From positions 1-64,000 of the forward strand of contig CAXNJM010000002.1 of NCBI GenBank assembly GCA_964202895.1: DNA of 64,000 nt. The letters run 5' to 3'. The stretch's first letter is position 1. Each line of letters begins with the position of its first letter. The position numbers and the translations under genes are program-made. Shown here in pieces: positions 16,392 to 31,885 of the stretch. The notes below the pieces were generated by a model. That model was not told where the DNA came from and did no database searches. It saw only the letters and a list, made by a program, of their open reading frames with translations. This DNA comes from Rickettsiales bacterium UBA1997 (GTDB lineage: Bacteria > Pseudomonadota > Alphaproteobacteria > Rickettsiales > UBA1997).

Positions 16392-18077
16392 TTATTGCCA
16401 AAACCTTTGATTAAAGATTTCTTTTTCGAGAACTTTTAGCTCATTATTCTCTTTAAAAATAATATATTTAACTCCAGTTGCTTGGTTTATAGTTTCAAAT
16501 TCAATTTGAATGTTATTTTTGATGTAATTTTGCTTGTCATTGACTATTCTAAAACCCGCATGTTGAAAAAAATGGGGCCTAAAATGATATCTAGAATCAG
16601 CAGAAGCAAGGTTGCCAGTGCTAAAAAATGATGATCCGGCAATCATTTTATGTTTACCATCAAAACATGGAGTAGAAAAATCTTTATAGTAAGAATGAAT
16701 TTTAAAGCCTTTTAATGGATGAAAATCATCTTCAAGCCATTGCCAAACATTGCCATGTATGTCGTGTAGATTATTTTCGGTGTGCTTATTGATATTTACA
16801 GCATTTTCACTTAAATTTTGTAGATTAAAATTGAAATTATTGTGAAATTGACTATTGATAGGGTCGGTTTCAAAATCTTGTAAAGCTCGGTGTTCAGCTT
16901 CAAAGGGAAGCCTGTAATTTTTGCCATCTAGCTCCGATTTATACCTACAAAATGCCTTTGCTTCGTAATGATTTACAATTACTGGATAATCCCACTGCAT
17001 ATCAATGATATCAAAACAGCTTCTTAATTTAAATAAATTAGAGTCTTTAGGGCCATTTGCAACCCAGAATGTTGGATGATAGGTGTTTCTAAATTTTCGC
17101 CAAGAAAGACCATTATCGCACCAATATTTGTCAATATAATAGCCATCATCTTTAACAAATTCAAAGAATTCACCATTGCTGATTAAATATTGACTAACAT
17201 CGAAATTGTTAACCTTTCTTGTATCAAGACCGTATTCGTTGTCCCATCCATAGGTTGTGATGTCTTTTTTTCCGATATGAACTACTTTAGATTCAATGCT
17301 GAGTAATTCATTCTCAGGATAATCAATTTCAACTAGAGGAAATGGATTTTCTTGTTGACGATGAGTTGGTTCTGTAAAATATTTAGGATTTCTAATGTGC
17401 TCTATCTGCATTTCCCTAATTAACACACTAGATGTTTCTAGGTGTATTCTTTCATGTTCAAAGGACATTAGCAGTGACCAGAGAGGGGTTTTGTCAAGAG
17501 GGGTTTTGTCAAGTGTGGTTTTAGCGGATATTTTTGTTGTAAATAATTGCTCGTTTTTATTGATAATATCAGTGACCAAATTATAAGCTTCCTCCCGATA
17601 GGTGAAGACTTCTTCCAGAGTTGGCCAGTTAATTTTGCCATCTTGAGTGTTGACATCCCAAGTCATTTCGTCTACTCCAGTTTCGAAAATATTTTCAAAT
17701 TCCTTGTTCACACCTTTGTTAATTAAGCCTGCTAATAACATTTTATTAACATAAAACGAGGCTACATGGCCGTAGTAAAATATTAGAGGGTGCCTTAATG
17801 AGTGATAAGGTGTTTGATAAAATGATTCCTTATATTTAAGGCTTGAGAATAAAACTTCAGTTAAAAGCCAGCAATTATTGAAATATTTTAAATATTCTTC
17901 CTTGCCAGAATTGATATTTAATGATTGCAAAGATATTATTTTGTTGTTTATAATTGAGTGTTTAGAGTAATTTTTATCAATGTAATGCGGTAAGATTTCT
18001 TCTATTTCTGTAAAATTAATTGCTTCAAACCTTTTTGCAAAGCTTTTTGCGATTGGTAAAACTATTTTAGATTTCAT
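16392..18077 (-). CDS. EgtB/OvoA-like sulfoxide synthase (DinB_2 plus FGE-sulfatase domains, no methyltransferase domain)
   Basis: 561 aa. DinB_2-type motif HPLIFYYGHVASFYVNK. C-terminal FGE-sulfatase-type HGNVWQWLEDDF. No SAM-binding GxGxG region after the FGE domain. Confidence 0.6.
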   Translation of the reverse strand: MKSKIVLPIAKSFAKRFEAINFTEIEEILPHYIDKNYSKHSIINNKIISLQSLNINSGKEEYLKYFNNCWLLTEVLFSSLKYKESFYQTPYHSLRHPLIFYYGHVASFYVNKMLLAGLINKGVNKEFENIFETGVDEMTWDVNTQDGKINWPTLEEVFTYREEAYNLVTDIINKNEQLFTTKISAKTTLDKTPLDKTPLWSLLMSFEHERIHLETSSVLIREMQIEHIRNPKYFTEPTHRQQENPFPLVEIDYPENELLSIESKVVHIGKKDITTYGWDNEYGLDTRKVNNFDVSQYLISNGEFFEFVKDDGYYIDKYWCDNGLSWRKFRNTYHPTFWVANGPKDSNLFKLRSCFDIIDMQWDYPVIVNHYEAKAFCRYKSELDGKNYRLPFEAEHRALQDFETDPINSQFHNNFNFNLQNLSENAVNINKHTENNLHDIHGNVWQWLEDDFHPLKGFKIHSYYKDFSTPCFDGKHKMIAGSSFFSTGNLASADSRYHFRPHFFQHAGFRIVNDKQNYIKNNIQIEFETINQATGVKYIIFKENNELKVLEKEIFNQRFWQ

Positions 18078-18098: not shown

Positions 18099-19181
18099 AT
18101 GAGTACTAGCGAAAATAATAGTTTTGTTAATAATATTTGCAATTACAAATTAATGAAATGCATCATGTTGATTGAAGATGCTCTTGAGGAAAGGGGTGTA
18201 AAATCTTCAATTAATATTGAATTAGAGGGTGTTTATTTAGATAGTGAGAACTTATCAAAAAATTATTTCTATGAGAGAACAAATTCTGAGCTTAAAAAGC
18301 TAGAAATTAAAGCCAAACTAAAGCCTGAATTCTGGCAAAATCAATGGGAATATGAATCAGATTTTCAAATAGGCGATGTATCGCAAACAATAAATAATTA
18401 TCAAAAGTTTTGTCAAAATATTGATCAGATTTTCTACCCTCAAATACCCAAAATTCAACCAATAAACTATAAGTGGCAAGAGTTAAATAATAAATTAATT
18501 CATGTGCCAAATGCCATACAGCTCAATATCAGCCTCTGGAAAGAGGGATTTAATATGCTGGCTAACAAAAATTTTGCCTTCTTTTTGCAAAATTCATTAA
18601 TTAAGAATTCTGTTAATAATTTAATATTTTTTATTCCAAATCAAGAAAGCTTAGATCGTTTGTTTTTAAAAGAAGATTATGGCTTGCAAGAAAAATTGCT
18701 GTCTCCACATGACATTTCAGGTGGAAATAAAGGCAGTATCGCCTGTTATCTTGAAAAAAACAAAAAAGATTTACCGAATAATCTTGATATTAATTTTGAT
18801 AATTTAGGTTATAAAGTTTTAGATCATCAATATGATTGGCAAAAAAACTCTAGAATAGAATTTAGATTAGCCTCTGCGGGTTCAGAATACTCCGTTCAAC
18901 TGCATATTTTTTTTGTGATGTTGGTGGTTCTGGAGTCTTTAATTTTATATGATGAAGATAAAAAATATAGAGCATTAAAAACCACTTACAGCATTCCAAG
19001 AAAATTTTATGATTGCAATCAAGATAATGTAGTAAGTAGGTATGAAAGCGGGCTGTTTTTTGATAAAAAAACTAAACTATTTTTAAAAAAAGGAAAAGAG
19101 CAAAGTTTCTTGTCATTAAGCAAAATATTAGGTCAAATAAAAAATGAAATTGAAGATTTAATAAAATGCATAAAAAGTTGA
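18099..19181 (+). CDS. Hypothetical protein; possible carboxylate-amine ligase (GCS2/EgtA-like)
   Basis: 360 aa. INIELEG near the N-terminus and RIEFRLASAG...QLHIFFVML resemble the YbdK/GCS2 GIELE and EVRVMD regions. The assignment is weak. Confidence 0.3.
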   Translation: MSTSENNSFVNNICNYKLMKCIMLIEDALEERGVKSSINIELEGVYLDSENLSKNYFYERTNSELKKLEIKAKLKPEFWQNQWEYESDFQIGDVSQTINNYQKFCQNIDQIFYPQIPKIQPINYKWQELNNKLIHVPNAIQLNISLWKEGFNMLANKNFAFFLQNSLIKNSVNNLIFFIPNQESLDRLFLKEDYGLQEKLLSPHDISGGNKGSIACYLEKNKKDLPNNLDINFDNLGYKVLDHQYDWQKNSRIEFRLASAGSEYSVQLHIFFVMLVVLESLILYDEDKKYRALKTTYSIPRKFYDCNQDNVVSRYESGLFFDKKTKLFLKKGKEQSFLSLSKILGQIKNEIEDLIKCIKS

Positions 19182-19836: not shown

Positions 19837-19873
19837 TGTTATCACCCTCCCCTTGAGGGAGGGTGATAACACC
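19835..19873. promoter_or_regulatory. Perfect 17 bp-stem hairpin (ggtgttatcaccctccc / gggagggtgataacacc, 5 nt loop) upstream of gpx
   Basis: Read directly; GC-rich relative to its surroundings; 65 bp upstream of the gpx start. Confidence 0.6.
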
Positions 19874-19939
19874 GATAATGAATTAAGCATCAACCCATTA
19901 ATAAAACAACCCATAATTTTTAACTCAATTTACAATAAA

Positions 19940-20494
19940 ATGAAATTTTTTAAAATAACCCTAATATCGCTATTACTAGCTAGTCTTAGCTCTTTTAGTT
20001 TTGGAGCAAATATGACAATTTCAAATGCTTATCAATTTTCACTTACATCAATTGACGATAAAGCAATCAATTTGTCAGATTTTAAAGGAAAAGTAATGCT
20101 CATTGTAAACACCGCTTCAAAGTGTGGCCTTACTACTCAATATAAAGATTTACAAGAATTACACGAAAAATATAAAAATAAAGGTTTGGTTATAATCGCT
20201 GTTCCGTCGGCAGATTTTGCGAATCAGGAATTTGCTCAAACTTCACAAGTAAAAGAATTTACCGCTAAAGAATTTCGCATTACCTTTCCTTTAACTACAA
20301 TTACAAAAGTTAAGGGCGAAAATGCCCATCCATTCTACTTATGGGCAAATAATAAGGCTGGTTTTATAGGTTCTCCTAAATGGAATTTTCATAAATATTT
20401 AATCGATAAAAATGGTAATTTTGTGGCTTGGTTTTCTTCGTCAACTAAACCTAATTCACCAATAATAATTAAAAAAATTGAAGAACTATTATGA
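19940..20494 (+). CDS. gpx: Glutathione peroxidase (signal peptide-bearing)
   Basis: The start is taken at MKFFKITLISLLLASLSS. LIVNTASKCGLTTQY active-site region with Cys in place of Sec; FPLTT...NFHKYLIDKNG. Confidence 0.85.
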   Translation: MKFFKITLISLLLASLSSFSFGANMTISNAYQFSLTSIDDKAINLSDFKGKVMLIVNTASKCGLTTQYKDLQELHEKYKNKGLVIIAVPSADFANQEFAQTSQVKEFTAKEFRITFPLTTITKVKGENAHPFYLWANNKAGFIGSPKWNFHKYLIDKNGNFVAWFSSSTKPNSPIIIKKIEELL

Positions 20495-20865: not shown

Positions 20866-20961
20866 ATGTTAGAGCGAGCTTAAGCCTGATTTGGTTGGCA
20901 TTGATAAAATTACCTTTATCTTCAATCATCTTTATAATGCCATTAACCAGCTCTACAATTT

Positions 20962-21336
20962 TTAAGAAATTAATAGAATTAGAATATATTTAAAAAAGAA
21001 GCTGATTGCCAATATTATAACCGACATCCACCATACAATTTTGTTAAATTTTTTGGTTTTATTGCATATCTCAGCTAATTTCTTATCAGCTGGGCATGTC
21101 TGTGGTTTGATAAAGATAAAATATCCGCCAATTAAAAGAAGATTCGTAGCTATAGTAAATAAATATAAACTTCTTTCAGCTAACCATGTAATAAAAGGGA
21201 AGTTTGCGGTTAAGTTAGCAAAAACCGCCCCAATTCCTAATGTTACTAAAATTATTGGTAATGCACAGCAAAGAATTGTCGAAACGGAAGTAAATAATCC
21301 AAAAAACGGGAGCAACGATTCTTTTATCTTAATCAT
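20962..21336 (-). CDS. MerT-family metal transport membrane protein
   Basis: 124 aa. TM1 with CCALPIILVTLG. Loop Cys pair KPQTCPADKKLAEIC. Collinear with Tn501 MerT (CCLGPLVLIALG / CKPGEVC). Confidence 0.65.
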   Translation of the reverse strand: MIKIKESLLPFFGLFTSVSTILCCALPIILVTLGIGAVFANLTANFPFITWLAERSLYLFTIATNLLLIGGYFIFIKPQTCPADKKLAEICNKTKKFNKIVWWMSVIILAISFFFKYILILLIS

Positions 21337-21346
21337 ATTAAAAGCC

Positions 21347-21634
21347 CTAACGATTAATTTTAACTACATTGTAGCCATTATTAACTATGATATCTTTGAT
21401 AATTTCATCGGATAAATCTTTGCCATCTTGAAAAGTTAGAAATACTTTCTTTTGATCTAAATCAACCCTAACCTTCTTGATTTCATCTCTTTTGTTAAAG
21501 TTTTTTTCTATTGTGACAACACAAAATTCACAAACTAAACCATTTACATCAATATTAATTTCCTTAGCAAAAACAGAAGAAATATTGATTAAAAATATAA
21601 GCGAAAAAACAGTAATAAATTTTTTAAACATCAT
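21347..21634 (-). CDS. Periplasmic heavy-metal-associated (HMA) protein, MerP-like
   Basis: 95 aa; signal peptide; metal-binding GLVCEFC (CxxC) in a ferredoxin-like fold. Its start overlaps the upstream stop (TAATG). Confidence 0.65.
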   Translation of the reverse strand: MMFKKFITVFSLIFLINISSVFAKEINIDVNGLVCEFCVVTIEKNFNKRDEIKKVRVDLDQKKVFLTFQDGKDLSDEIIKDIIVNNGYNVVKINR

Positions 21635-23154
21635 TAAAACCTTGCAATAAAATTAAATAAAATTCTCTTATTAGAGCTTACTCCAAATTCAGCTAAATGA
21701 GCTCCTTTAAAGATTCTAACAAGAGGGGTGGCAATTACTTTGTCCCCTTTAAATTCTGGTTGATGAGAAGCTTGAAGCATCAACCAAGTATGAAGATTGC
21801 CATAATTAGCTACATAAGGGGCGATACCAATTCTTGCTGATTGCTCAAAATTACTAAGAATATCTCCGTCAGATTTATAATATTTGTTTTCGTAAGAGAT
21901 GAAATATTTTCTAGTCTCAAAGTCTCCGGCAATTCCCACAAAGCCGTATAATTCATTTTTTCCTGATTTATTAGCATTGCCAATATTTGATTCAAGATAA
22001 AGATTTCCTTGTGAGGATGGTAAGTTCCACCTTTTAATCAGATTATTTAATTGAATGCCATTTAGGGCTATTTGATTTTTTCTAAAATATTCTCCTTTAT
22101 AGCCAACTGAGTATTTGTAGCTTGGTGAGTAATGGGCATGAATAGAATTTTTCATGGCATCATTCATTTGCATGATTGTCTTGCCTCCTGAGTAGGAAAT
22201 TGGACGACTAAAAACATTGCTCGCAAGAAATGACAAAAATATTGTTAGAGTCAAAAATAATCTCAATCTAATTTTTTCGTAAGTTAGATAGTTACCCTTC
22301 TTACTTGCCATTTTAGGATTATTCGAAAAAATCAGGGTGTTTGAATCTGATTTAGCAACATCTCTTAAGGTGTCTCTGTAATCAATTCCAGCTATAAATT
22401 CAAGTATATAATGAGGATCAATATTTTTCTCTTTAAGTTGATCTAAGGCCTCAGAAAGGCCCTTGCTAATCACTCTTCTCTGTATTGCATAAGATTCAGC
22501 CTTCAATTCAAGGCTTCTGGCTTCAGCTTCTGCTTCACCAACAAGTAATATTTTTTTGGCTTCTGCCTGATTTCTTGAGGCATCAAGTTGTCTTTGAGAT
22601 GCAATTACATTGTTGTAGGCTTCTTTAACCTCTGGAGATGGCTCTGGTTCATCAACTAAAATATCAATTATTTCATAGCCATATTCTTCTATTTTGCTGT
22701 GCAAAGATTCAGTGACATGCTGAGCAATTTCATTCTTTTTAGTGTATATATCTTCTAAATCTAAGGTTGCTGCTTTTGATCTAATAGTATTTAAAATAAA
22801 AGCATTTATCTGATTAATTGGGTTATCAAGTTTATAAAAAGATTCTGCAATCTTATCTTCAATTACCTTTAATTGAGTTATTACGGGCAGTTTAATGAAG
22901 GCATTATCTTTGGTTTTTATTCCTAATTCATGATTTGATTGGGTAATTCTAAGGCTTGCTTTTTGAGCTACTACACTAATTGGGTAGGGAAGTTTGAAAT
23001 TTAAACCGGGCTTTGCAAGGCCAATAAATTTACCAAATCTTTCGATTATGGATACCCTTTGTTGCTCTACAATAAACAAAACTCCAGATGAAAATAGAAT
23101 GAAGAGAATTCCGATTACAACAATAATGGGTGTTAGTATAGATGTTAGCAACAT
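21634..23154 (-). CDS. SPFH/band-7 domain protein fused in frame to a C-terminal outer-membrane beta-barrel-like domain
   Basis: aa 1-281: TM plus the SPFH core (VEQQRVSIIERFGKF). From the internal Met at 22311: a signal-peptide-like segment MASKKGNYLTYEKIRLRLFLTLTIFLSFLASNVFS. Then alternating-hydrophobic strands ending in a C-terminal Phe (ILFNFIARF). Confidence 0.6.
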   Translation of the reverse strand: MLLTSILTPIIVVIGILFILFSSGVLFIVEQQRVSIIERFGKFIGLAKPGLNFKLPYPISVVAQKASLRITQSNHELGIKTKDNAFIKLPVITQLKVIEDKIAESFYKLDNPINQINAFILNTIRSKAATLDLEDIYTKKNEIAQHVTESLHSKIEEYGYEIIDILVDEPEPSPEVKEAYNNVIASQRQLDASRNQAEAKKILLVGEAEAEARSLELKAESYAIQRRVISKGLSEALDQLKEKNIDPHYILEFIAGIDYRDTLRDVAKSDSNTLIFSNNPKMASKKGNYLTYEKIRLRLFLTLTIFLSFLASNVFSRPISYSGGKTIMQMNDAMKNSIHAHYSPSYKYSVGYKGEYFRKNQIALNGIQLNNLIKRWNLPSSQGNLYLESNIGNANKSGKNELYGFVGIAGDFETRKYFISYENKYYKSDGDILSNFEQSARIGIAPYVANYGNLHTWLMLQASHQPEFKGDKVIATPLVRIFKGAHLAEFGVSSNKRILFNFIARF

Positions 23155-23783
23155 AGTAAATTGAAGGTTGGTTGAATATGAGATTCCAATTTATAATTAA
23201 AATTTAAAACAACAAGTTGTTTGTGAATTGGTTTCGAAATAAAACAAGTGATATAGAATTTTCAAGAAGCTTTATCAATAATGGCTCTAATGCTGTTTTG
23301 GAATATGAAATAGAAAAAGTTTTCAGAGTGTTGCAAATGCTTATTTTTCTAAACTCGCCTTGTTATTAATAAATTTAGAACCAATATTGGAGAAATAAAT
23401 AAAACCTTGCAATAGCTTAGATATTGCTTTGGTTAATATTTTTTATTTAATTTTATTGGGGATCGGATTTGAATCCCTGTTTAGGATTCTTATTGTTCAA
23501 ATTAAGGTTGTTTCTGTTTAAAAGTAACTAAAGAAATTAATGGCATTTTATTCGTAGTTTATTAGCATTATTTATACCAATAATTTAAGTTAGAAAAAAA
23601 ACTTACCTCTACTAATCATCACCCCAATCGCCTGCTATCATCAAATCGCCACCATTCACCCAAATGGCTTGAAACTGGTTTTATTGAAGCGAGCTTTAAA
23701 AGCGAAAAGAATCGTGGTTATTTTTTGGGCAAGAAGTGGCGGGGAATAATTGAATAATTTAAAAATCTAAATTCTTAAAAAAA

Positions 23784-25358
23784 ATGAACAGCGAACAAAT
23801 CAAGCAACTCGAAAAAGAACTTTGGGATTCTGCCGATAATCTCCGCGCTAACTCCAAATTAACAGCCGCAGAATACAAAGACCCGGTTCTTGGATTAATC
23901 CTTCTGCGCTATGCCCAAAATCGTTTTGAAGAAGCAAAAATTGCTATTGAAGAAAAAATTCCGTCAAACCCAAGAGGCAAACGCCCCGCCACTCAAGCAG
24001 ATTTTCTTGCTTCTGGCGCCATGATGCTTCCCGAAAAATCACAATATGGCTATCTCGCCAATTTGCCTGAAGGTGCAGACATCTGCGAAGCCTTGAACGA
24101 AGCCATGCGCCTTATCGAAGAAAACTACGCCGACCTTGCCGGAATTTTGCCAAAAAATTATCAAGAATTAGATGCAGAATTACTGCGCGAGCTGATCCGT
24201 GTTTTCAACAAAGACTCGGTCAAAAAACTTAAAGGCGACATCTTTGGTCGTATTTACGAATTTTTCTTAATGAAATTTTCTATGAGCGGTGCCGGTGCGC
24301 AAGAGGGCGGAGAATTCTTTACGCCACCATCTTTGGTGCAATTAATCGTCAATTTTATTCAGCCAGATCACGGCATCATCCACGACCCAGCCTGCGGATC
24401 GGGCGGTATGTTTGTGCAAACTGGTCATTTCGTAGAAAATCACAGCAAAAAAGCAGTCAATGAGGCCATCAAAGTTTACGGCACCGAGCTAAAATCTAAC
24501 AACACCCGCCTCGCCAAAATGAACCTCGCCATTCATGGCATCGAGGGCAAAATTATTGAGAGCAACAGTTTCTATTCCGACCCGCACAACCTTGTTGGCA
24601 AATGTGATTTTGTAATGGCAAACCCACCTTTCAATGTGAATAAAGTCGATAAAGGCAAAGACTTCGTAAAAACCGACAAGCGTTTATTTGGCGATATTGG
24701 TCTGCCCAAAGCCGACAATGGCAACTATTTGTGGATTCAATATTTTTATCATTATCTAAATGCCAAAGGTCGCGCCGGCTTTGTTATGGCATCTTCGGCA
24801 ACTGATGCTGGAAATAGCGAAAAATTAATTCGTCAAAAATTAATCGAAACGGGAGGCGTGGATTGCATTGTTGCGGTGGGCAATAATTTCTTCTACACCC
24901 GCTCGCTACCTTGCCATTTATGGTTTTTGGATCGCGGCAAAGCAGAAAAAAACAAGAATAAAATTTTGATGATTGATGCCAGAAACACCTTCCGTCAAAT
25001 TAACACCACACTTCGTGATTTTTCACCCGAGCAAATGCAAGGCTTAACCGCAATAATAAAATCTTATCGTGGCGAAAATGTTACTCAAGATTTTGCCAGC
25101 AATTCTTGGTTAAAAGAAACTTTCGCAAACGGAAAATATGAAGATGTTGAAGGCCTGTGCAAAATTGTTGATATGAAAGAGGTTGAAGAAAATGATTGGA
25201 GCCTAACTCCCGGAAGATATGTCGGCTATTCAATCACTCTTGATGAAGATTTTGATTATACCAAAAGACTTGGAGAAATTCACAGCGAGTTGAAAAGCTT
25301 GAATGATGAAGCTGTTGGTTTGATGGAGAAGATTTTGTCGGGGGCAAGATGCCGCTAA
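23784..25358 (+). CDS. hsdM: Type I restriction-modification system, N6-adenine methyltransferase subunit
   Basis: 524 aa; HsdM N-terminal domain, SAM motif DPACGSGGMF, catalytic NPPF. Confidence 0.9.
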   Translation: MNSEQIKQLEKELWDSADNLRANSKLTAAEYKDPVLGLILLRYAQNRFEEAKIAIEEKIPSNPRGKRPATQADFLASGAMMLPEKSQYGYLANLPEGADICEALNEAMRLIEENYADLAGILPKNYQELDAELLRELIRVFNKDSVKKLKGDIFGRIYEFFLMKFSMSGAGAQEGGEFFTPPSLVQLIVNFIQPDHGIIHDPACGSGGMFVQTGHFVENHSKKAVNEAIKVYGTELKSNNTRLAKMNLAIHGIEGKIIESNSFYSDPHNLVGKCDFVMANPPFNVNKVDKGKDFVKTDKRLFGDIGLPKADNGNYLWIQYFYHYLNAKGRAGFVMASSATDAGNSEKLIRQKLIETGGVDCIVAVGNNFFYTRSLPCHLWFLDRGKAEKNKNKILMIDARNTFRQINTTLRDFSPEQMQGLTAIIKSYRGENVTQDFASNSWLKETFANGKYEDVEGLCKIVDMKEVEENDWSLTPGRYVGYSITLDEDFDYTKRLGEIHSELKSLNDEAVGLMEKILSGARCR

Positions 25359-26377
25359 ATAAAACAAAAACACCAACACCGGCCATGAAAACAGAAATCG
25401 AAAAACCACAAATTTCAATTTATCAACCTCTTGGCGACGGCCAAAAAATTCGCGTTAGAATTGAAGATGAAAATGTTTGGCTCACTCAAAAATTAATCGC
25501 CGAGCTTTTCAAAATCAGCATTCCAACGGTTAATGAACATTTTAAAAACATTTTCGAAGAGCAAGAATTGACAGAAAATTCAGTTATTAGGAATTTCCTA
25601 ATAACTGCCAAAGACGGTAAAAATTACGACACCAAATATTACAACCTCGATGCAATATTGGCAGTTGGCTATCGCGTGCGCTCATCTCAAGGCGTGCAGT
25701 TTCGAAAATGGGCAACAGAAAGATTACGAGAATATCTAATCAAAGGCTTCACTATGGACGACGAGCTCTTAAAACAAGGTGGCGGTCGCTCACGCTATTT
25801 TGAAGAATTATTGCAGAGAATTCGCGACATCCGAAGCTCTGAGAGAATGTTCTACCAAAAAATCACCGACATTTACGCCTCAAGCATTGATTACAAACTA
25901 GATTCAGAGTTAACCCAAAAATTCTTCGCCACTGTGCAAAATAAAATGCACTTTGCCGTTCATGGCAAAACCGCCGCAGAAATTATCAACAGCCGTGCCA
26001 ATGCTAGCAAGCCATTGATGGGTTTAACTAGTTTTAAAAACGACTACATCACCGAAGGCGACACCAAAATTGCCAAAAATTATTTAACCGAAGACGAGAT
26101 AAAACAGCTCAATTTAATTGTGTCGCTCTACCTCGATTTTGCCGAGTTGCAAGCGAGTTCAGGAAAGTTGATGAAGATGCAAGATTGGATAAAAAAGCTC
26201 GATGAATTTTTGACAATTTCCGATAAAAATCTTTTGCAATCAGCGGAAAATATCAGTGCCAAAGATGCGGAAATTAAGGCGGAAGAAGAATTTGAAAAAT
26301 ACCGCCAAAATCAGGATAAAAATTATGTTTCTGATTTTGATAAAGAGATGAAGAAGATTTTGAAGGAGGTAGCGTGA
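25349..26377 (+). CDS. rhuM: RhuM-family protein embedded in the hsd operon
   Basis: 342 aa; VWLTQKLIAELFKISIPTVNEHFKNIFEE...YNLDAILAVGYRVRS characteristic of RhuM. Overlaps the hsdM stop and the hsdS start. Confidence 0.75.
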   Translation: MPLNKTKTPTPAMKTEIEKPQISIYQPLGDGQKIRVRIEDENVWLTQKLIAELFKISIPTVNEHFKNIFEEQELTENSVIRNFLITAKDGKNYDTKYYNLDAILAVGYRVRSSQGVQFRKWATERLREYLIKGFTMDDELLKQGGGRSRYFEELLQRIRDIRSSERMFYQKITDIYASSIDYKLDSELTQKFFATVQNKMHFAVHGKTAAEIINSRANASKPLMGLTSFKNDYITEGDTKIAKNYLTEDEIKQLNLIVSLYLDFAELQASSGKLMKMQDWIKKLDEFLTISDKNLLQSAENISAKDAEIKAEEEFEKYRQNQDKNYVSDFDKEMKKILKEVA

Positions 26378-27660
26378 TGAAGGGGTGGAGTAAGCGATCA
26401 ATAGGTGACATTGCAAAAGTTACTTCGAGTAAGCGTATTTTTCTTAGCGATTATGTTGAATTCGGAATTCCTTTTTGGAGATCTAAAGAGGTAATAGAGC
26501 AATTTCATGGGAAAAATGTTTCAACGGAGCTGTTCATTGCCAAAGAAAAATATAATGAAATAAAAGCAAAATTTGGCGTTCCAAACAAAGGAGACATTCT
26601 ATTAACCAGCGTTGGCACTGTTGGGGTTCCACATCTCGTTAGAAATGATTCACCATTTTATTTTAAAGATGGAAATCTGACTTGGGTCAAAGATATTATT
26701 GAAGAAGTAGAGCCTTATTACATTTATCTTTGGCTTTCGTCCAATGTTGGGCAAAAAGAGATCCAAAATAATCTTATAGGTTCGTCCCAAAAAGCGCTTA
26801 CGATTGATTCTTTAAAAAAAATAAAAATCCCACTCCCGCCACTCCCACTTCAAAAGAAAATTGCGGGGATTTTATCGGCTTATGATGACTTGATCGAAAA
26901 CAATTTAAGGGCACTCAAGTTGCTGGAAGAAATGGCACAAATCACCTACGAAGAATGGTTCGTGCGCCTCCGCTTCCCCGGCCACGCCACAACCCCAATC
27001 AATCCCACAACTGGCTTGCCTGAGGGGTGGAAGAAAGTTAAACTACGAGAAGTCCTGAAACTAAATTATGGTAAAGCTTTAAAAGCAGATACTCGTATTC
27101 AAGGCAGTATTCCTGTTTATGGATCGTCAGGAATAGTTGGGATGCATAATTTTGCTTTAGTTGATGGGGTGGGAATAATCGTAGGGCGCAAAGGTAATGT
27201 CGGAAGTGTTTTTTGGTCACATGACAGCTTTTATCCAATAGACACCGTCTATTTTGTAACCTCTTTGCATGAACTGCATTTTCTTTACTACGCTCTCAGA
27301 AATTCTAAATTTGATAATAGCGATGCCGCCGTTCCAGGACTTAATCGTGATGCTGCGTATGCAGTTGAAATAACTCTGCCTCCAAAAAATATTGAAAAGC
27401 ATTTTGCTGATTTGGTGGAGCAGAATTTTTTAACCATTCAATTATTTGAAGAGCAAAACCAACGCCTTCGCGAAGCTCGTGATATCTTACTTCCACGCCT
27501 AATGACGGGAGTCATTGATGTTGAAAAATATCCCGCCGTCGTCATGCCGTTGCAAAACGGCACCCAGAAAGAGGTAGGGCTGGGTCCCGACTTTCGTCGG
27601 GATGACGGTAAGGGTCGAGATGACGGAACTAAAAATAATAACAATGAGGTAAAGCTATGA
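26374..27660 (+). CDS. hsdS: Type I R-M specificity subunit with RPE-encoded C-terminal tail
   Basis: 428 aa. Two TRDs. Central conserved LPPLPLQKKIAGILSAYDDLIENN. The C-terminal 35 aa (VMPLQNGTQKEVGLGPDFRRDDGKGRDDG...) are encoded by the RPE at 27533-27625. Confidence 0.85.
   Translation: MMKGWSKRSIGDIAKVTSSKRIFLSDYVEFGIPFWRSKEVIEQFHGKNVSTELFIAKEKYNEIKAKFGVPNKGDILLTSVGTVGVPHLVRNDSPFYFKDGNLTWVKDIIEEVEPYYIYLWLSSNVGQKEIQNNLIGSSQKALTIDSLKKIKIPLPPLPLQKKIAGILSAYDDLIENNLRALKLLEEMAQITYEEWFVRLRFPGHATTPINPTTGLPEGWKKVKLREVLKLNYGKALKADTRIQGSIPVYGSSGIVGMHNFALVDGVGIIVGRKGNVGSVFWSHDSFYPIDTVYFVTSLHELHFLYYALRNSKFDNSDAAVPGLNRDAAYAVEITLPPKNIEKHFADLVEQNFLTIQLFEEQNQRLREARDILLPRLMTGVIDVEKYPAVVMPLQNGTQKEVGLGPDFRRDDGKGRDDGTKNNNNEVKL
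27533..27625. repeat. RPE-like element inserted in frame at the hsdS 3' end
   Basis: cgtcatgccgttgcaaaacggcacccagaaagag...gggtcccgactttcgtcgggatgacgg. Confidence 0.7.
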
Positions 27661-30600
27661 GCTATGAATATTCAGAAGATGGTTTAGTGGAAACTGCCAC
27701 GCAAGAGGTTCTTGAAGCTTTAGGCTGGCGAGTTGTTACCGCTTGGAAGAAAGAAACTTTTGGTGAAGTCGGCTTGCTCAGCCAAGAGAATCTTGGTAAA
27801 ACTAATTTGGGTCGCGCTAATAAATCGGAAGTTATTTTAAAACGACATCTGCTTTCAGCTTTAAAAAAGCTCAACCCAAACTTGCCGGAGCTGGCTTATT
27901 CTCATGCTATTTTGCAGATTGCAGAAAAATCTGCCGACAAAACTTTGGCGCAAATTAATCAAGAAAAGCACCAACTTTTAACCAAGGGCGTGAAGGTTAG
28001 TTTTCGTAACGACAAAGGCGTAATCGAAGAAAAAACGTTGAAGGTTTTTGATTTTAACCATCCGCTGGAAAATGAATTTTTGGCAGTGCGGCAGTTAGAA
28101 ATCGTTGGCGAACTTGGTAATAGTCGCCCCGATGTGATTGGTTTTGTAAATGGCATTCCGTTGGTGTTTTTTGAGTTAAAGGCTCATCACATTGAGCTTG
28201 AAGCAGCTTATCGCGATAACCTTACCGATTACAAAGGAACGAAAGAAATTAAAGGAACGATAGAAAGCCTTTTTCATTGCAATGCTTTTATTATTTTAAG
28301 CAACGGCACCGACGCCAAGCTTGGAACCATCACCAGCCCCTACAAATTCTTTTTAGATTGGAAGCGTGTTGAAGAAGATGAAGAAGGTGTTGTGAACCTT
28401 GATACCATGCTACGAGGCACTTGCGATCGTGCCCGCTTAATTGACTTATTCGAAAACTTTTTACTCTTTGACGGCAAAGATGGCGAGGTGGTGAAAATTA
28501 TGGCGAAGAATCACCAGTTTATTGGTGTGAATAAAGTGATTGCCCAAATAAAAGATCAGGCGAAGAACATTGAAGATTTGAAGGGAAAGCTAGGCGTTTT
28601 TTGGCATACACAAGGTTCGGGAAAATCTTATTCGATGGTGTTTTTATGCCAAAAAATTCATCGCAAATTTGGTGGTTCTTACACTTTTTTAATCGTGGTT
28701 GATCGCACTGAATTGGAAGGTCAGCTTTACGAAACCTTTACTGGTTGCGGTGCGGTGACGGAAAAAAATATTAAAGCTGAAAACCGTAATCATTTGCGTG
28801 AATTGCTGGCGCAAAATCATCGTTATGTTTTTACACTCATTCACAAATTTTCAATCGATCCACAAAAAGAGAGTGAATATCCGCTGATTGCTGATCGCAA
28901 AAATATCATTGTTATTTCGGACGAAGCTCATCGCACGCAGGGCGGAAAGTTTGCTCAGAATATGCGGTTTAACGGCATTCCTAATGCTTCTTATTTAGGT
29001 TTTACCGGCACGCCAATCATTAAAGAAGAGCTAGAGTTGACCAAAAATATTTTTGGTGAATATGTTTCGGTTTATGATTTTAAACGTGCCATTGAAGACA
29101 AGGCGACACTTCCTCTACGCTATTCAAACCGCGGTGAGAAGCTTGGAATTGAAAACCCAGAGCTTGATGAGCGAATGGCTGAAATTATCGAGAATGAAGA
29201 TTTAGACGAAGATCAGCGCGCTAAATTACAAAGAGAGTTTGCGCGCAATTATCCAATTTTAACTTCTCAAAGCCGATTGGATGCCATTGCTAAAGATTTG
29301 GTTTGGCACTTCAACGAGCGCGGTTATCAAGGCAAGGCGATGTTTGTGGCGCTTGATAAGCCAACGGCGGTGAGGATGTATGATCTGGCGATGAAATATT
29401 GGCCGCAATATGTGGCTGAATTGAAGAAAAAAATTGAACAAGTATCCGATCAACAAGAAGAATTAAAGTTAAAACATCAGCTGAAGCGTGTTTTAAAAAC
29501 TGAAGTTTGCGTAGTTGTAAGTGGTGGTGGCGAGCAAAACGAAGTTGATAGGTTTAGAAAGATGAATTTGGAAATTGAGCCTCACCGTAAAAAGATGAGG
29601 GAGCGTGTTTTAGAGAAAGAGTTTAAGGAAGATGAAAACCCCTTCCGCTTGGCGATTGTTTGTGCGATGTGGATTACTGGTTTTGATGTGCCGTGTGTTT
29701 CGACTATTTATCTTGATAAGCCTATCAAGGGTCACACTTTGATGCAGACGATTGCTAGAGCCAATAGGGTCTACGATGATGAAAAAGAAAATGGGCTGAT
29801 TGTTGATTACGGCAATGTTTACAAAAAGCTTGAGGAAGCTTATTCGGTTTATGGCGAAGGAGATAACAAGGGAGCAAAGAATGATGTTGGTAAAAATCTA
29901 CAAACACCAACGGCAAAATTGGAAGGCTTGGTGTTGGAAATTGAATCTTCAATTGGTGCAGTGAAGCGGTTTTTAATTGGCGTGGAATTTGAGCTTGGTG
30001 GCTTGGTGAACGCTGCAAGTTCAATGGAAAAATTGGCACTAATTAAAAAGGCCATGAACTGCATTTGTTTGAATGAAAAAACCCGCGCTGAGTTTGAATT
30101 TACGGCGCGAGATGTGTTTCGTAAATACAAAGCACTTTATCCAGAAGAGCAGATTAAGCAGTTTATCAAAGACCATAATGCCATTGAGGCAATCTACGCA
30201 CAGCTGAATCAGAAGGTGAAAAGCGCGGATATTACAAGTGTGATTTGCAGGCTTCAGCAAGAGGTGAATATGAGTGTTGTGGTTGGTGATTCAAACAATA
30301 ATGATGATGATTATGTGGATTTAGCGAAGTTGGTTTTGACAAACTGCGGCAGGCATTTGCTAAATCTAAAAATCAAAACTTGGTGGTTTTTGATTTGCAA
30401 AAAGCAATTGAGAGTAAGCTAGAAAAGATGGTGCAACAAAATCCATTGCGACTGGAGTTCTACGAGAAATACAAAAAAATCATCGAGGAATATAACGATG
30501 GCAAAGATCTGCAAGCTGTTCAAAATGCATTTCATAATTTACAAAATTTTATGAAGGAACTTTCCGTAGAGGAATTGCGAGCTATTCACGAAGGGCTGGA

Positions 30601-30907
30601 CGAAGAAACTCTGGCGATTTTTGATTTAATAAAAAAGCCGACTCTCTCTAAAAAAGAAGAGGAAGAAGTAAAAAAAGTTGCGGTAGAAACCCTTCAAATT
30701 CTCAAGGAAGAAAAATTAAAAATTGAGCGTTGGCGTGAAAGCACGCAATTGACCGCACAGGTAAGAACTGTTATTTTTGACAGTATGCAGTGGTTGCCAC
30801 AAGAAGCTTATGTTGATGACGAAGTTAGGCAGAGAAGTGACCAAGTTTATCAGCATATTTATACAAATTATCCGGGTGGGGATTGTGTTTCTTATGCTTC
30901 GCTTTAA
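27657..30907 (+). pseudogene. hsdR: Type I restriction enzyme R subunit, frameshifted near its 3' end
   Basis: The 921 aa ORF (VISDEAHR DEAH box, helicase motifs) plus the 175 aa ORF (30380-30907) together reconstitute a full-length HsdR of about 1083 aa. The frames switch at the T4 run 30334-30337. Restoring one T gives LAKLVFDKLRQAFAKSKNQNLVVFDLQ. Confidence 0.8.
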
Positions 30908-31359
30908 ATTTTAGATAGGCGAAATACGCCAGATAAATTACTTGGATAGTCATAGTCATTGTTCAGATTTCTTTCTATAGAATAATATTTGTTGGGAATA
31001 ATCCAGACATATTGTCCTTTAATTAAATTAATATCAAAAGGAGTGTTTTGAAATCCGCCAATGGCGTAGTGATTAAATTTATCTTTTACATTTGACTTAT
31101 AAGATTCTGAATATGCATCTCTTATGATGGAAATACAAGTGCTTATAGAAAGCTCTTTATCGGAAACTACTATATCGAATATTTCTGATGTACCATCTCC
31201 TTTATCTTCTCTAACCTCAGCTTTATATCTTCCAGCTTCTAAAGTATCGCCATTATAATCACTGACATCAACAGCAACCAATAAAGGCTTTTCGTAATTT
31301 GCCCACTCCAAACTTGTTTTAGCATTTGTTATATGTTTGTATTGCAAAAAATATAACAA
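30904..31359 (-). CDS. Hypothetical protein (orphan, within the defence island)
   Basis: 151 aa ORF with no recognisable motifs. Confidence 0.35.
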   Translation of the reverse strand: MLYFLQYKHITNAKTSLEWANYEKPLLVAVDVSDYNGDTLEAGRYKAEVREDKGDGTSEIFDIVVSDKELSISTCISIIRDAYSESYKSNVKDKFNHYAIGGFQNTPFDINLIKGQYVWIIPNKYYSIERNLNNDYDYPSNLSGVFRLSKI

Positions 31360-31885
31360 ATATCAGGAGCTTGTAAAGTTTTGAATTTTTCATTGGATTA
31401 TACCAAAATTTATTATTATTTATTAAAGGGCTGGAGTATGTCTTCTTAAATTTGAAATGTCAAGGGTTCGCCATTGTTAACAAATTGGGAGGGGTTGCCC
31501 AAAGCTTCTTCTTGTTTCGTGGGCAATTGATTCAGTAAGGCTTTTTATTCTTTGAATTTGGGCTAAGTTTGGATTAAGATTTTCTTTTATTGCTGTGAAT
31601 TAAATGTTTATGAATACTGAATTTATTACTAAATAACTTGATATTTTATCTTTGTTGTCGATAGTAAACTGCGGAAAAAATATCGATTTGCCTGTTTTTT
31701 TGGCTAAAAAAATCAAGTTATAAAAATAAATATGCCAAGCAAAATTGATAAATTTGGTCATTTTATTATTGATCGCGATTTACACAATCACGCAGGCGAG
31801 TTAGAAAATAGGGTTGCAGAGGCTTTTATTGAATTTGCTAAATCACAAAAACTAAACTTTATCACCAACTAAAAAACCAACCAAT

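Follow-up and report, generated by a model that had tools for sequence, protein, structure and literature searches.

A conserved barrel, HMA and MerT-like gene cassette, probably for a soft metal, and its probable joining to an SPFH gene by a private 41-bp deletion in a Rickettsiales genome record

The first 64,000 nucleotides of contig CAXNJM010000002.1 (GenBank assembly GCA_964202895.1, Rickettsiales bacterium UBA1997; this whole stretch is referred to here as the window) contain an open reading frame (ORF) of 506 amino acids (aa) that runs from an SPFH/Band-7 domain into an outer-membrane-barrel domain, followed by genes for a secreted HMA-domain protein and a MerT-like inner-membrane protein. 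We consider it probable that this locus consists of an ordinary SPFH gene joined by a private 41-bp deletion to a conserved envelope cassette for a soft metal. Judged by gene order across many genomes, the conserved unit is a set of three genes—barrel, HMA and MerT-like—of which the SPFH gene is not part. We propose, more tentatively and with less than even confidence, that the cassette is a widespread and undescribed trans-envelope pathway for soft metal ions (Cu(I)/Ag(I) or Hg(II)/Cd(II)) with its own 12-stranded channels and a thiol relay without coupling to ATP or the proton-motive force, and that its barrel tolerates in-frame upstream fusions since signal peptidase separates the parts after membrane insertion.

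The fusion is explained by comparison with close relatives. In the fused ORF, K281 is directly joined to M282 with no stop codon between them. The nearest relative of the SPFH part, a 294-aa protein that is 99 % identical to it (P0001), ends in NNPKDDLQKLLPSLLNK, and its stop codon overlaps the ATG of a separate gene that starts MASK.GNY.TYEKIRL; the SPFH part in the window is missing the final 13 codons (DDLQKLLPSLLNK) and the stop codon found in relatives. DNA alignment with the homologous locus L001 located the difference: 41 bp are absent from the window at the junction, where relatives carry AGATGATTTACAAAAGCTTTTACCAAGTTTATTGAATAAAT. The missing 41 bp comprise the last 13 codons and most of the SPFH stop codon, and the junction shows 1 nt of microhomology. 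The preliminary description of the locus raised the question of a missing stop codon at this place; the stop codon is indeed gone, but the loss compared with every close relative is the whole 41 bp. As the two genes of the relatives overlap as TAATG, they are out of frame with each other; removal of 41 bases (13 codons plus 2 bases) brought the two frames into register and thereby opened the 506-aa ORF.

The same comparison holds throughout the lineage. Loci L001, L006-L010 and L090 are 94-98 % identical to the window at the nucleotide level, and their BLAST alignments all break at window positions 22309-22312; the unfused junction sequences were read in L001, L006 and L009. The two-gene form, with an SPFH gene of 294 aa where complete, a barrel gene of 225 aa where intact and the TAATG overlap, occurs in at least ten near-identical assemblies, namely those loci and L091-L093; in the latter three the genes are likewise separate (294 and 225 aa), and one 92.9-kb scaffold among them shares the downstream synteny. 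The fused form is the only one of 506 aa among the 21 members of its 90 % protein cluster. The relatives of the full 506-aa protein (n = 66) are 281-539 aa long and none reaches into the barrel part, while SPFH relatives at 60 % identity or more span 293-342 aa. No fused homologue was found among the 66 SPFH hits, 438 barrel hits and 655 barrel representatives, and the fused junction had no match in the JGI metagenomes, in which the unfused junction, used as a control, matched one contig. The SPFH tail deleted in the window (DLQKLLP.L) is kept in SPFH homologues. Judged from these comparisons, the fusion is a one-off of little biological weight and represents no conserved SPFH-barrel multidomain architecture; the meaning first attached to it is not borne out by the cluster or by the metagenomes.

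In L010, a metagenome-assembled genome 94 % identical to the window, a stop codon splits the barrel gene into ORFs at 1946-2104 and 2108-2587; this split gene (1946-2587) may be a pseudogene or may stem from faulty assembly. The L010 record is labelled 'Rickettsia typhi', a label that cannot fit a marine lineage.

The 506-aa ORF with its order of SPFH then barrel, the TAATG overlap and the HMA and MerT-like ORFs are all present in the sequence, as first described, and the barrel stop and the HMA start have one base in common; a 10-nt spacer separates the HMA gene from the MerT-like gene. Ratios of nonsynonymous to synonymous substitution rates (dN/dS) are mostly 0.02-0.23 within the lineage for all four coding regions; one comparison of the 95-codon HMA gene gave 0.52, a noisy value, and comparisons with outgroups gave 0.05-0.11 (dS about 0.9). 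On these ratios, all four coding regions are real genes under purifying selection rather than chance ORFs. A promoter and terminator scan of the locus stayed close to shuffle expectation.

The deletion, which our comparisons confine to this genome record, would be either a private mutation or an assembly error. Given purifying selection on all four coding regions, the event would therefore be recent or artefactual. We take seriously, as a possible but not the likelier origin of the fused ORF, an assembly or sequencing artefact in which the 41 bp were lost in assembly, polishing or amplification: the fused form stands alone, both among the lineage's assemblies (at least 11) and among the 21 cluster members, its junction is missing from the JGI metagenomes, the lost tail is conserved in homologues, and the genes on both sides of the junction are, like the rest of the locus, under purifying selection. 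Nevertheless, homopolymer or read errors do not typically leave so clean a loss of 41 bp with just 1 nt of microhomology; the perfectly restored frame is equally compatible with a real mutation that is tolerated; and other decay in the lineage is possible, to judge from a possible, weakly matching remnant of a CsoR gene (below) and from the stop codon within the L010 barrel gene.

The distribution of the cassette bears on whether the SPFH domain belongs to it. We scanned with a barrel profile a collection holding one genome per species, which yielded 346 loci, and examined the best 80. The barrel gene is followed on the same strand by the HMA gene in all 80, and the MerT-like gene comes directly after the HMA gene in 73, in agreement with the P-then-T order first noted; in the other seven the MerT-like gene was undetected, some of these loci ending at a contig edge and others perhaps falling below threshold. 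The SPFH gene, by contrast, is absent from the cassette flanks in 79 of the 80 species-representative loci, and an SPFH gene upstream of the cassette was found only in the window's own lineage (L001, L006-L008, L010, L090 and L091-L093; L009 is too short to show this region). A search for the four-part arrangement in other genomes, as proposed in the preliminary description, thus showed it only within this lineage. The records place cassette hosts among uncultured marine 'Rickettsiales', Micavibrio, other Alpha- and Gammaproteobacteria, and Bdellovibrionota. We found no description in the literature of MerT- or MerP-like modules with an outer-membrane partner or with CsoR or CueR control.

Two loci whose SPFH gene is 93 % identical to that of the window (L002 and L003) have the same upstream restriction-modification neighbourhood with no cassette downstream, and their SPFH protein has a longer tail (325 aa). 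We therefore infer that the cassette moved beside the SPFH gene recently and that this arrival had already shortened the SPFH tail.

The SPFH part itself is unremarkable. Its residues 27-200 match Band_7 (PF01145) with an E value of 2e-28 and 99.9 bits against a cut-off of 23.6, and a membrane segment (aa 1-32) precedes the domain, as expected of an SPFH/Band 7 protein. Hydrophobic segments of the fused protein occur only at aa 1-32 and aa 297-315, and positive residues lie after the first and before the second. According to the positive-inside rule, the SPFH domain would be cytoplasmic with its N-terminus outside, as in QmcA, so that the signal peptide of the barrel (aa 297-315) would still insert into the inner membrane from the cytoplasmic side outwards; signal peptidase could then cut between VFS and RP and release a normal barrel precursor. 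The SPFH-barrel fusion may thus be tolerated rather than functional, and such processing, by freeing the barrel, would explain the persistence of fusions of this kind (SPFH here, MerR elsewhere).

The opposite reading, that the fusion is a functional design in which an SPFH scaffold organises a trans-envelope metal complex, was raised in the preliminary description, and we consider it highly improbable. It could draw on the arrangement in the window's lineage, where four genes with overlapping or near-overlapping stops and starts are probably co-transcribed, and on the existence elsewhere of a second type of in-frame N-terminal barrel fusion, with a MerR domain. However, neither half of the ORF has a homologue fused likewise; SPFH is missing around the cassette in nearly all species representatives (79/80), which makes an SPFH-organised complex unlikely; the 93 %-identical SPFH relatives in L002 and L003 lack a downstream cassette; and the fusion has removed the conserved SPFH tail. 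The features of the locus are collected in Table 1.

Table 1. Features of the locus, in window coordinates
Feature	Position	Strand	Basis
Fused ORF, 506 aa (SPFH, then signal peptide, then barrel)	21634-23154	minus	
SPFH/Band-7 part of fused ORF, aa 1-281	22312..23154	minus	Pfam Band_7 and hydropathy
41-bp deletion junction	22311..22313	minus	alignment with relatives
Barrel start codon M282 and predicted Sec-type signal peptide, aa 282-316	22207..22311	minus	homologue starts, AlphaFold2 helix, hydropathy
Mature 12-stranded outer-membrane beta barrel (predicted), aa 317-506 and stop	21634..22206	minus	
Secreted HMA-domain metallochaperone (predicted), 95 aa	21347..21634	minus	Pfam HMA
MerT-like inner-membrane protein (predicted), 124 aa, three helices	20962..21336	minus	Pfam MerT, AlphaFold2
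Probable remnant of a CsoR/RicR-type repressor gene (...VNGIIKMIEDK...)	20915-20962	minus	tblastn, weak

The first gene of the cassette encodes a member of a large barrel family. Stand-alone barrel homologues start at the position of M282, and the segment that follows has a positive n-region, a hydrophobic core (LFLTLTIFLSFLA) and a predicted cleavage site between VFS and RP; homologue signal peptides end in A or S just before an R-P (or H-P) dipeptide, and among 114 barrel representatives the mature protein starts with R in 79, H in 25 and K in 4, with P as the second residue in 107. AlphaFold2 modelled residues 282-506 from a 28-sequence alignment as one N-terminal helix and 12 beta strands (pLDDT 89), the helix, at positions 8-33 of the barrel part, corresponding to the signal peptide. 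The window's protein ends in ARF, hence in a C-terminal Phe, and the family C-terminus is F, L or Y. The predicted signal peptide, an even number of antiparallel amphipathic strands that close a barrel in the model, and the C-terminal aromatic residue are together those of a 12-stranded outer-membrane barrel, in agreement with the barrel reading first given to this beta-strand-rich domain. The family, with proteins of about 210 aa (438 hits; 655 representatives at 50 % identity), matches no Pfam or NCBIfam domain. Numbered from M282, the residues R94, N96, Q101, N103, D130, E132, R134, R160, R199, E208 and W176 are invariant family-wide; apart from W176, all of these are polar or charged. A candidate CusF-like His/Met/Trp copper site in the barrel (H58, H60, H174, W176 and M178) was rejected, as only W176 is conserved among the 114 representatives.

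Structure comparison placed the barrel nearest to BrkA (17.2), Hbp (15.9), KdgM (15.3), FapF (14.7), intimin (14.4) and PcoB (13.3), with which a Foldseek search agrees. Profiles of the barrel and MerT-like families found nothing meaningful among PDB sequences, and a Pfam search of 28 barrel proteins at E values up to 5 returned only weak OMP_b-brl_2 matches and no CopB.

The 95-aa and 124-aa products are supported, on homology and predicted structure, as a secreted HMA protein and a distant member of the MerT superfamily. The HMA protein has a signal peptide (aa 1-23) with a signal-peptide-like N-terminus ending at VFA before KE, and carries the metal motif GLVCEFC (C35-E-F-C38), whose Cys codons lie between positions 21521 and 21532. 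Its homologues conserve the motif G[LM]VC[DE]FC, with G32, C35 and C38 invariant in 82 of 82. It passes the Pfam HMA model (E 8e-6; 26.6 bits against 24.8) and falls short of MerP (TIGR02052; 37.9 against 92.55), CopZ_Bs (NF033795; 45.1 against 91) and TIGR00003 (40.5 against 62); an HMA fold with a conserved CxxC and a signal peptide of the MerP type is thus what it shows.

For the 124-aa protein, MerT is the sole family matched, at scores below the cut-offs of both Pfam MerT (PF02411; 22.9 bits against 32.9) and NCBIfam MerT (NF010314; 27.9 against 150). A weak MerT match recurs in 12 of 15 members of the family, with a best E value of 2.7e-6. AlphaFold2 predicts helices at residues 3-32, 56-76 and 85-123 (pLDDT 72): the CC pair (aa 23-24) lies in helix 1, and C81 and C91 lie in a positively charged loop between helices 2 and 3, so that the three helices and two Cys pairs of MerT are both present. 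In 77 homologues C23 and C24 are conserved in 100 % and C81 and C91 in 99 %, and the CP-x8-C motif is found in 70 of 76 sequences; the loss of the Cys pairs, which would have spoken against the MerT-like assignment made at first, does not occur. By analogy with MerT and according to the positive-inside rule, the loop with C81 and C91 should face the cytoplasm.

These features suggest a path for the metal ion. The barrel would provide passage of a soft metal ion, on entry or on release, through the outer membrane; the secreted HMA protein would bind the ion in the periplasm through its C-[D/E]-F-C pair; and successive ligand exchange would hand it from the HMA protein first to the helix-1 CC pair of the MerT-like protein and then to its CP-x8-C pair on the cytoplasmic side. 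Such a path would be the relay from MerP to MerT by thiol ligand exchange, which has been described (PMC3466566), with an outer-membrane channel of its own; PcoB has been described as an outer-membrane copper barrel (PMC9210255, PMC12509749). The cassette could act in either direction, import or release.

Clues to the metal come from neighbours of the cassette in other genomes. In six close outgroups (L011, L013, L014, L017, L018 and L021) the MerT-like gene is immediately followed by an intact CsoR-like gene; the encoded repressor has the C...H-x3-C pattern (x-C-H-C) typical of Cu(I) sensors, and its best NCBIfam match, below cut-off, is RicR. In a distant clade, three proteins less than 50 % identical to each other (P0048, which is L004 5950-7041, P0294 and P0302) carry a three-Cys domain of the MerR family that is joined in frame to the barrel signal peptide. 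The L004 cassette moreover adjoins a cluster of ECF sigma, NrsF, MbnB-HvfC and DoxX genes with an 85-aa gene (L004 7796-11588), an arrangement that corresponds to a bufferin-type copper-stress operon for a ribosomally synthesised and post-translationally modified peptide (PMC11626156). Because of these CsoR/RicR-like, MerR-fusion and bufferin neighbours elsewhere, Cu(I) is the likeliest metal. The cassette's metal is most likely a soft metal, with Cu(I) as the best guess and Ag(I) as a possibility, and Hg(II) and Cd, Pb or Zn as further candidates; a thiophilic metal other than mercury, as suggested at first, is the most plausible substrate.

A tblastn search of the window with CsoR of L011 as query gave a weak match of 16 aa at 62 % identity (E 0.047) directly beyond the MerT-like gene; if the match is real, the presumed repressor of the cassette has been lost in the window's lineage. 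No single metal could be assigned to the fused MerR domains: their scores against the ZntR, MerR, CueR and CadR models are similar and in no case reach the cut-off. If signal peptidase cuts the MerR-barrel fusions, a membrane-tethered MerR would remain.

A small Cys/His-rich secreted protein gives a further clue. Of 81 loci, 37 (among L036-L088; for example L051 4358-4744 and L063 3629-3976) encode it immediately upstream of the barrel gene; the window has no such gene. Its motifs are MPCH, HCxGxCxC or CxGCxCxxC, and PPxRPPK at the C-terminus, and it matches neither Pfam nor NCBIfam.

A mercury uptake module, made up of MerP, MerT and an outer-membrane entry channel, with merA elsewhere or with Hg(II) delivered to cellular thiols, is an alternative that we regard as unlikely. 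MerT is the only family that the inner-membrane protein matches and both MerT-type Cys pairs are conserved, and the barrel-fused MerR domains show the three-Cys pattern of Hg/Pb/Cd/Zn sensors. However, scores fall well short of both equivalog cut-offs (MerT and MerP), the genes are ordered P-T instead of T-P, and CsoR-type repressors and a bufferin operon are copper-associated neighbours. As first reported, merA and merR are absent from the 64-kb window: a six-frame motif scan found no MerA-type (class-I disulfide-reductase) active site and tblastn found no match to MerR, so that the MerT-like gene here lacks the merA/merR linkage of MerT in mer operons; nor does a recurrent reductase-like gene cluster occur in the flanks of the 80 loci.

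Less probable still, in our view, is that the HMA and MerT-like pair forms a thiol/disulfide (electron) relay for the barrel or for periplasmic redox defence. Such a relay would account for Cys pairs conserved on both sides of the membrane, and it would fit the glutathione-peroxidase-family (GSHPx) gene found just downstream of the cassette in five other loci and nearby in the window, and the glutaredoxin-MauE/DoxX gene that recurs in five loci. Against it, the HMA fold and its G-x-x-C-x-x-C motif serve to bind metal, the regulators next to the cassette sense metals, and no thioredoxin-like partner is conserved in the cassette flanks. The window's own glutathione-peroxidase-family protein is encoded convergently to the cassette (19853-20494, plus strand) and has a signal-peptide-like N-terminus.

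Several observations weigh against an SPFH gene accidentally joined to a soft-metal cassette as we have described it. The regulator signals are mixed, CsoR pointing to Cu(I) while the MerR domains fit ZntR, MerR, CueR and CadR equally, and the acidic residue in C-[D/E]-F-C would also suit a divalent metal. The MerT-like protein is below all MerT cut-offs and the HMA protein below every curated MerP and CopZ cut-off; His and Met residues of the barrel are not conserved family-wide, and no metal site is evident in it. The topology given to the SPFH part is suggested by charge distribution alone. Control of the CsoR and MerR types turns genes on under metal excess, which suggests handling of excess metal rather than nutritional uptake. 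Moreover, merTP without merA sensitises the cell, and an importer without a cytoplasmic sink would do likewise.

The surroundings of the locus are variable. Upstream of the SPFH gene lies a type I restriction-modification (R-M) block (hsdM, hsdS and hsdR; 23369-31510) with a GC content of about 0.40 against 0.31 in its surroundings. L090 has no such block, the counterpart of window positions 31588-31511 being joined almost directly to that of 23368, and L091 has a different R-M system in the same place (an Eco57I-like methylase and an S subunit); this looks like a variable R-M island hot spot, near which no tRNA or attachment site was found. On the other side of the cassette, an OvoA-like 5-histidylcysteine sulfoxide synthase of only 561 aa (16392-18077, minus strand) corresponds to the N-terminal OvoA model, without a methyltransferase domain at its C-terminus; its divergent neighbour (18099-19181, plus strand) encodes 360 aa with no family match, and the pair also occurs in L091.

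If the cassette moves copper or another soft metal across both membranes by cysteine relay, its barrel would define a new family of outer-membrane channels, and the metal homeostasis of uncultured bacteria abundant in aquatic habitats would gain a MerTP-like route; the MerR-signal peptide-barrel fusions that recur would in that case tether a transcription factor to the membrane in an unusual way.

The SPFH part shares with HflK/HflC, QmcA and stomatin-like SPFH proteins an N-terminal membrane segment and a Band_7 domain, and among PDB entries it stands as far from HflK as from QmcA (E about 2e-9); it fails the HflK (TIGR01933; 71.6 bits against 159.4) and HflC (TIGR01932; 34.5 against 134.4) equivalogs, and the gene lists of homologous loci showed neither NfeD nor FtsH, partners of bacterial SPFH proteins. 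Unlike other bacterial SPFH proteins, it has lost its conserved C-terminal tail in the window and reads through into the next gene. The barrel differs from the known 12-stranded barrels (autotransporter beta domains, KdgM/NanC, FapF and the intimin beta domain) in having no passenger or plug and its own invariant charged set (R94, D130, E132, R134, R199 and E208), and its sequence identity to them is only 6-11 %.

The inner-membrane and periplasmic steps resemble those of MerT-MerP of the Tn21/Tn501 type: both systems have a secreted HMA protein with a CxxC pair and a three-helix protein whose first helix carries CC and whose loop joining helices 2 and 3 holds another Cys pair, and the same thiol ligand exchange is expected in both (PMC3466566). 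They differ in gene order (P then T in the cassette, T-P in mer operons) and in the HMA motif (G[LM]VC[DE]FC versus GMTCxxC of MerP). Unlike in MerT-MerP, the pair always has a dedicated outer-membrane barrel gene ahead of it and no linked merA or merR, and the regulators, where present, are CsoR-like or an unusual MerR fusion. PcoB-PcoC-PcoD and CopB-CopC-CopD, in turn, have the same three-compartment layout as the cassette with different parts: the cassette barrel has no sequence relationship to CopB/PcoB (PF05275), no Pfam CopB match and, with its mature start at R-P...SY, no room for the Met/His-rich disordered N-terminal region of PcoB; the chaperone is an HMA protein rather than CopC and the carrier MerT-like rather than CopD; and no multicopper oxidase is linked, unlike in Pco/Cop operons. 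The cassette is a variant of the logic of MerTP and PcoBCD, and not a complex organised by the SPFH protein.

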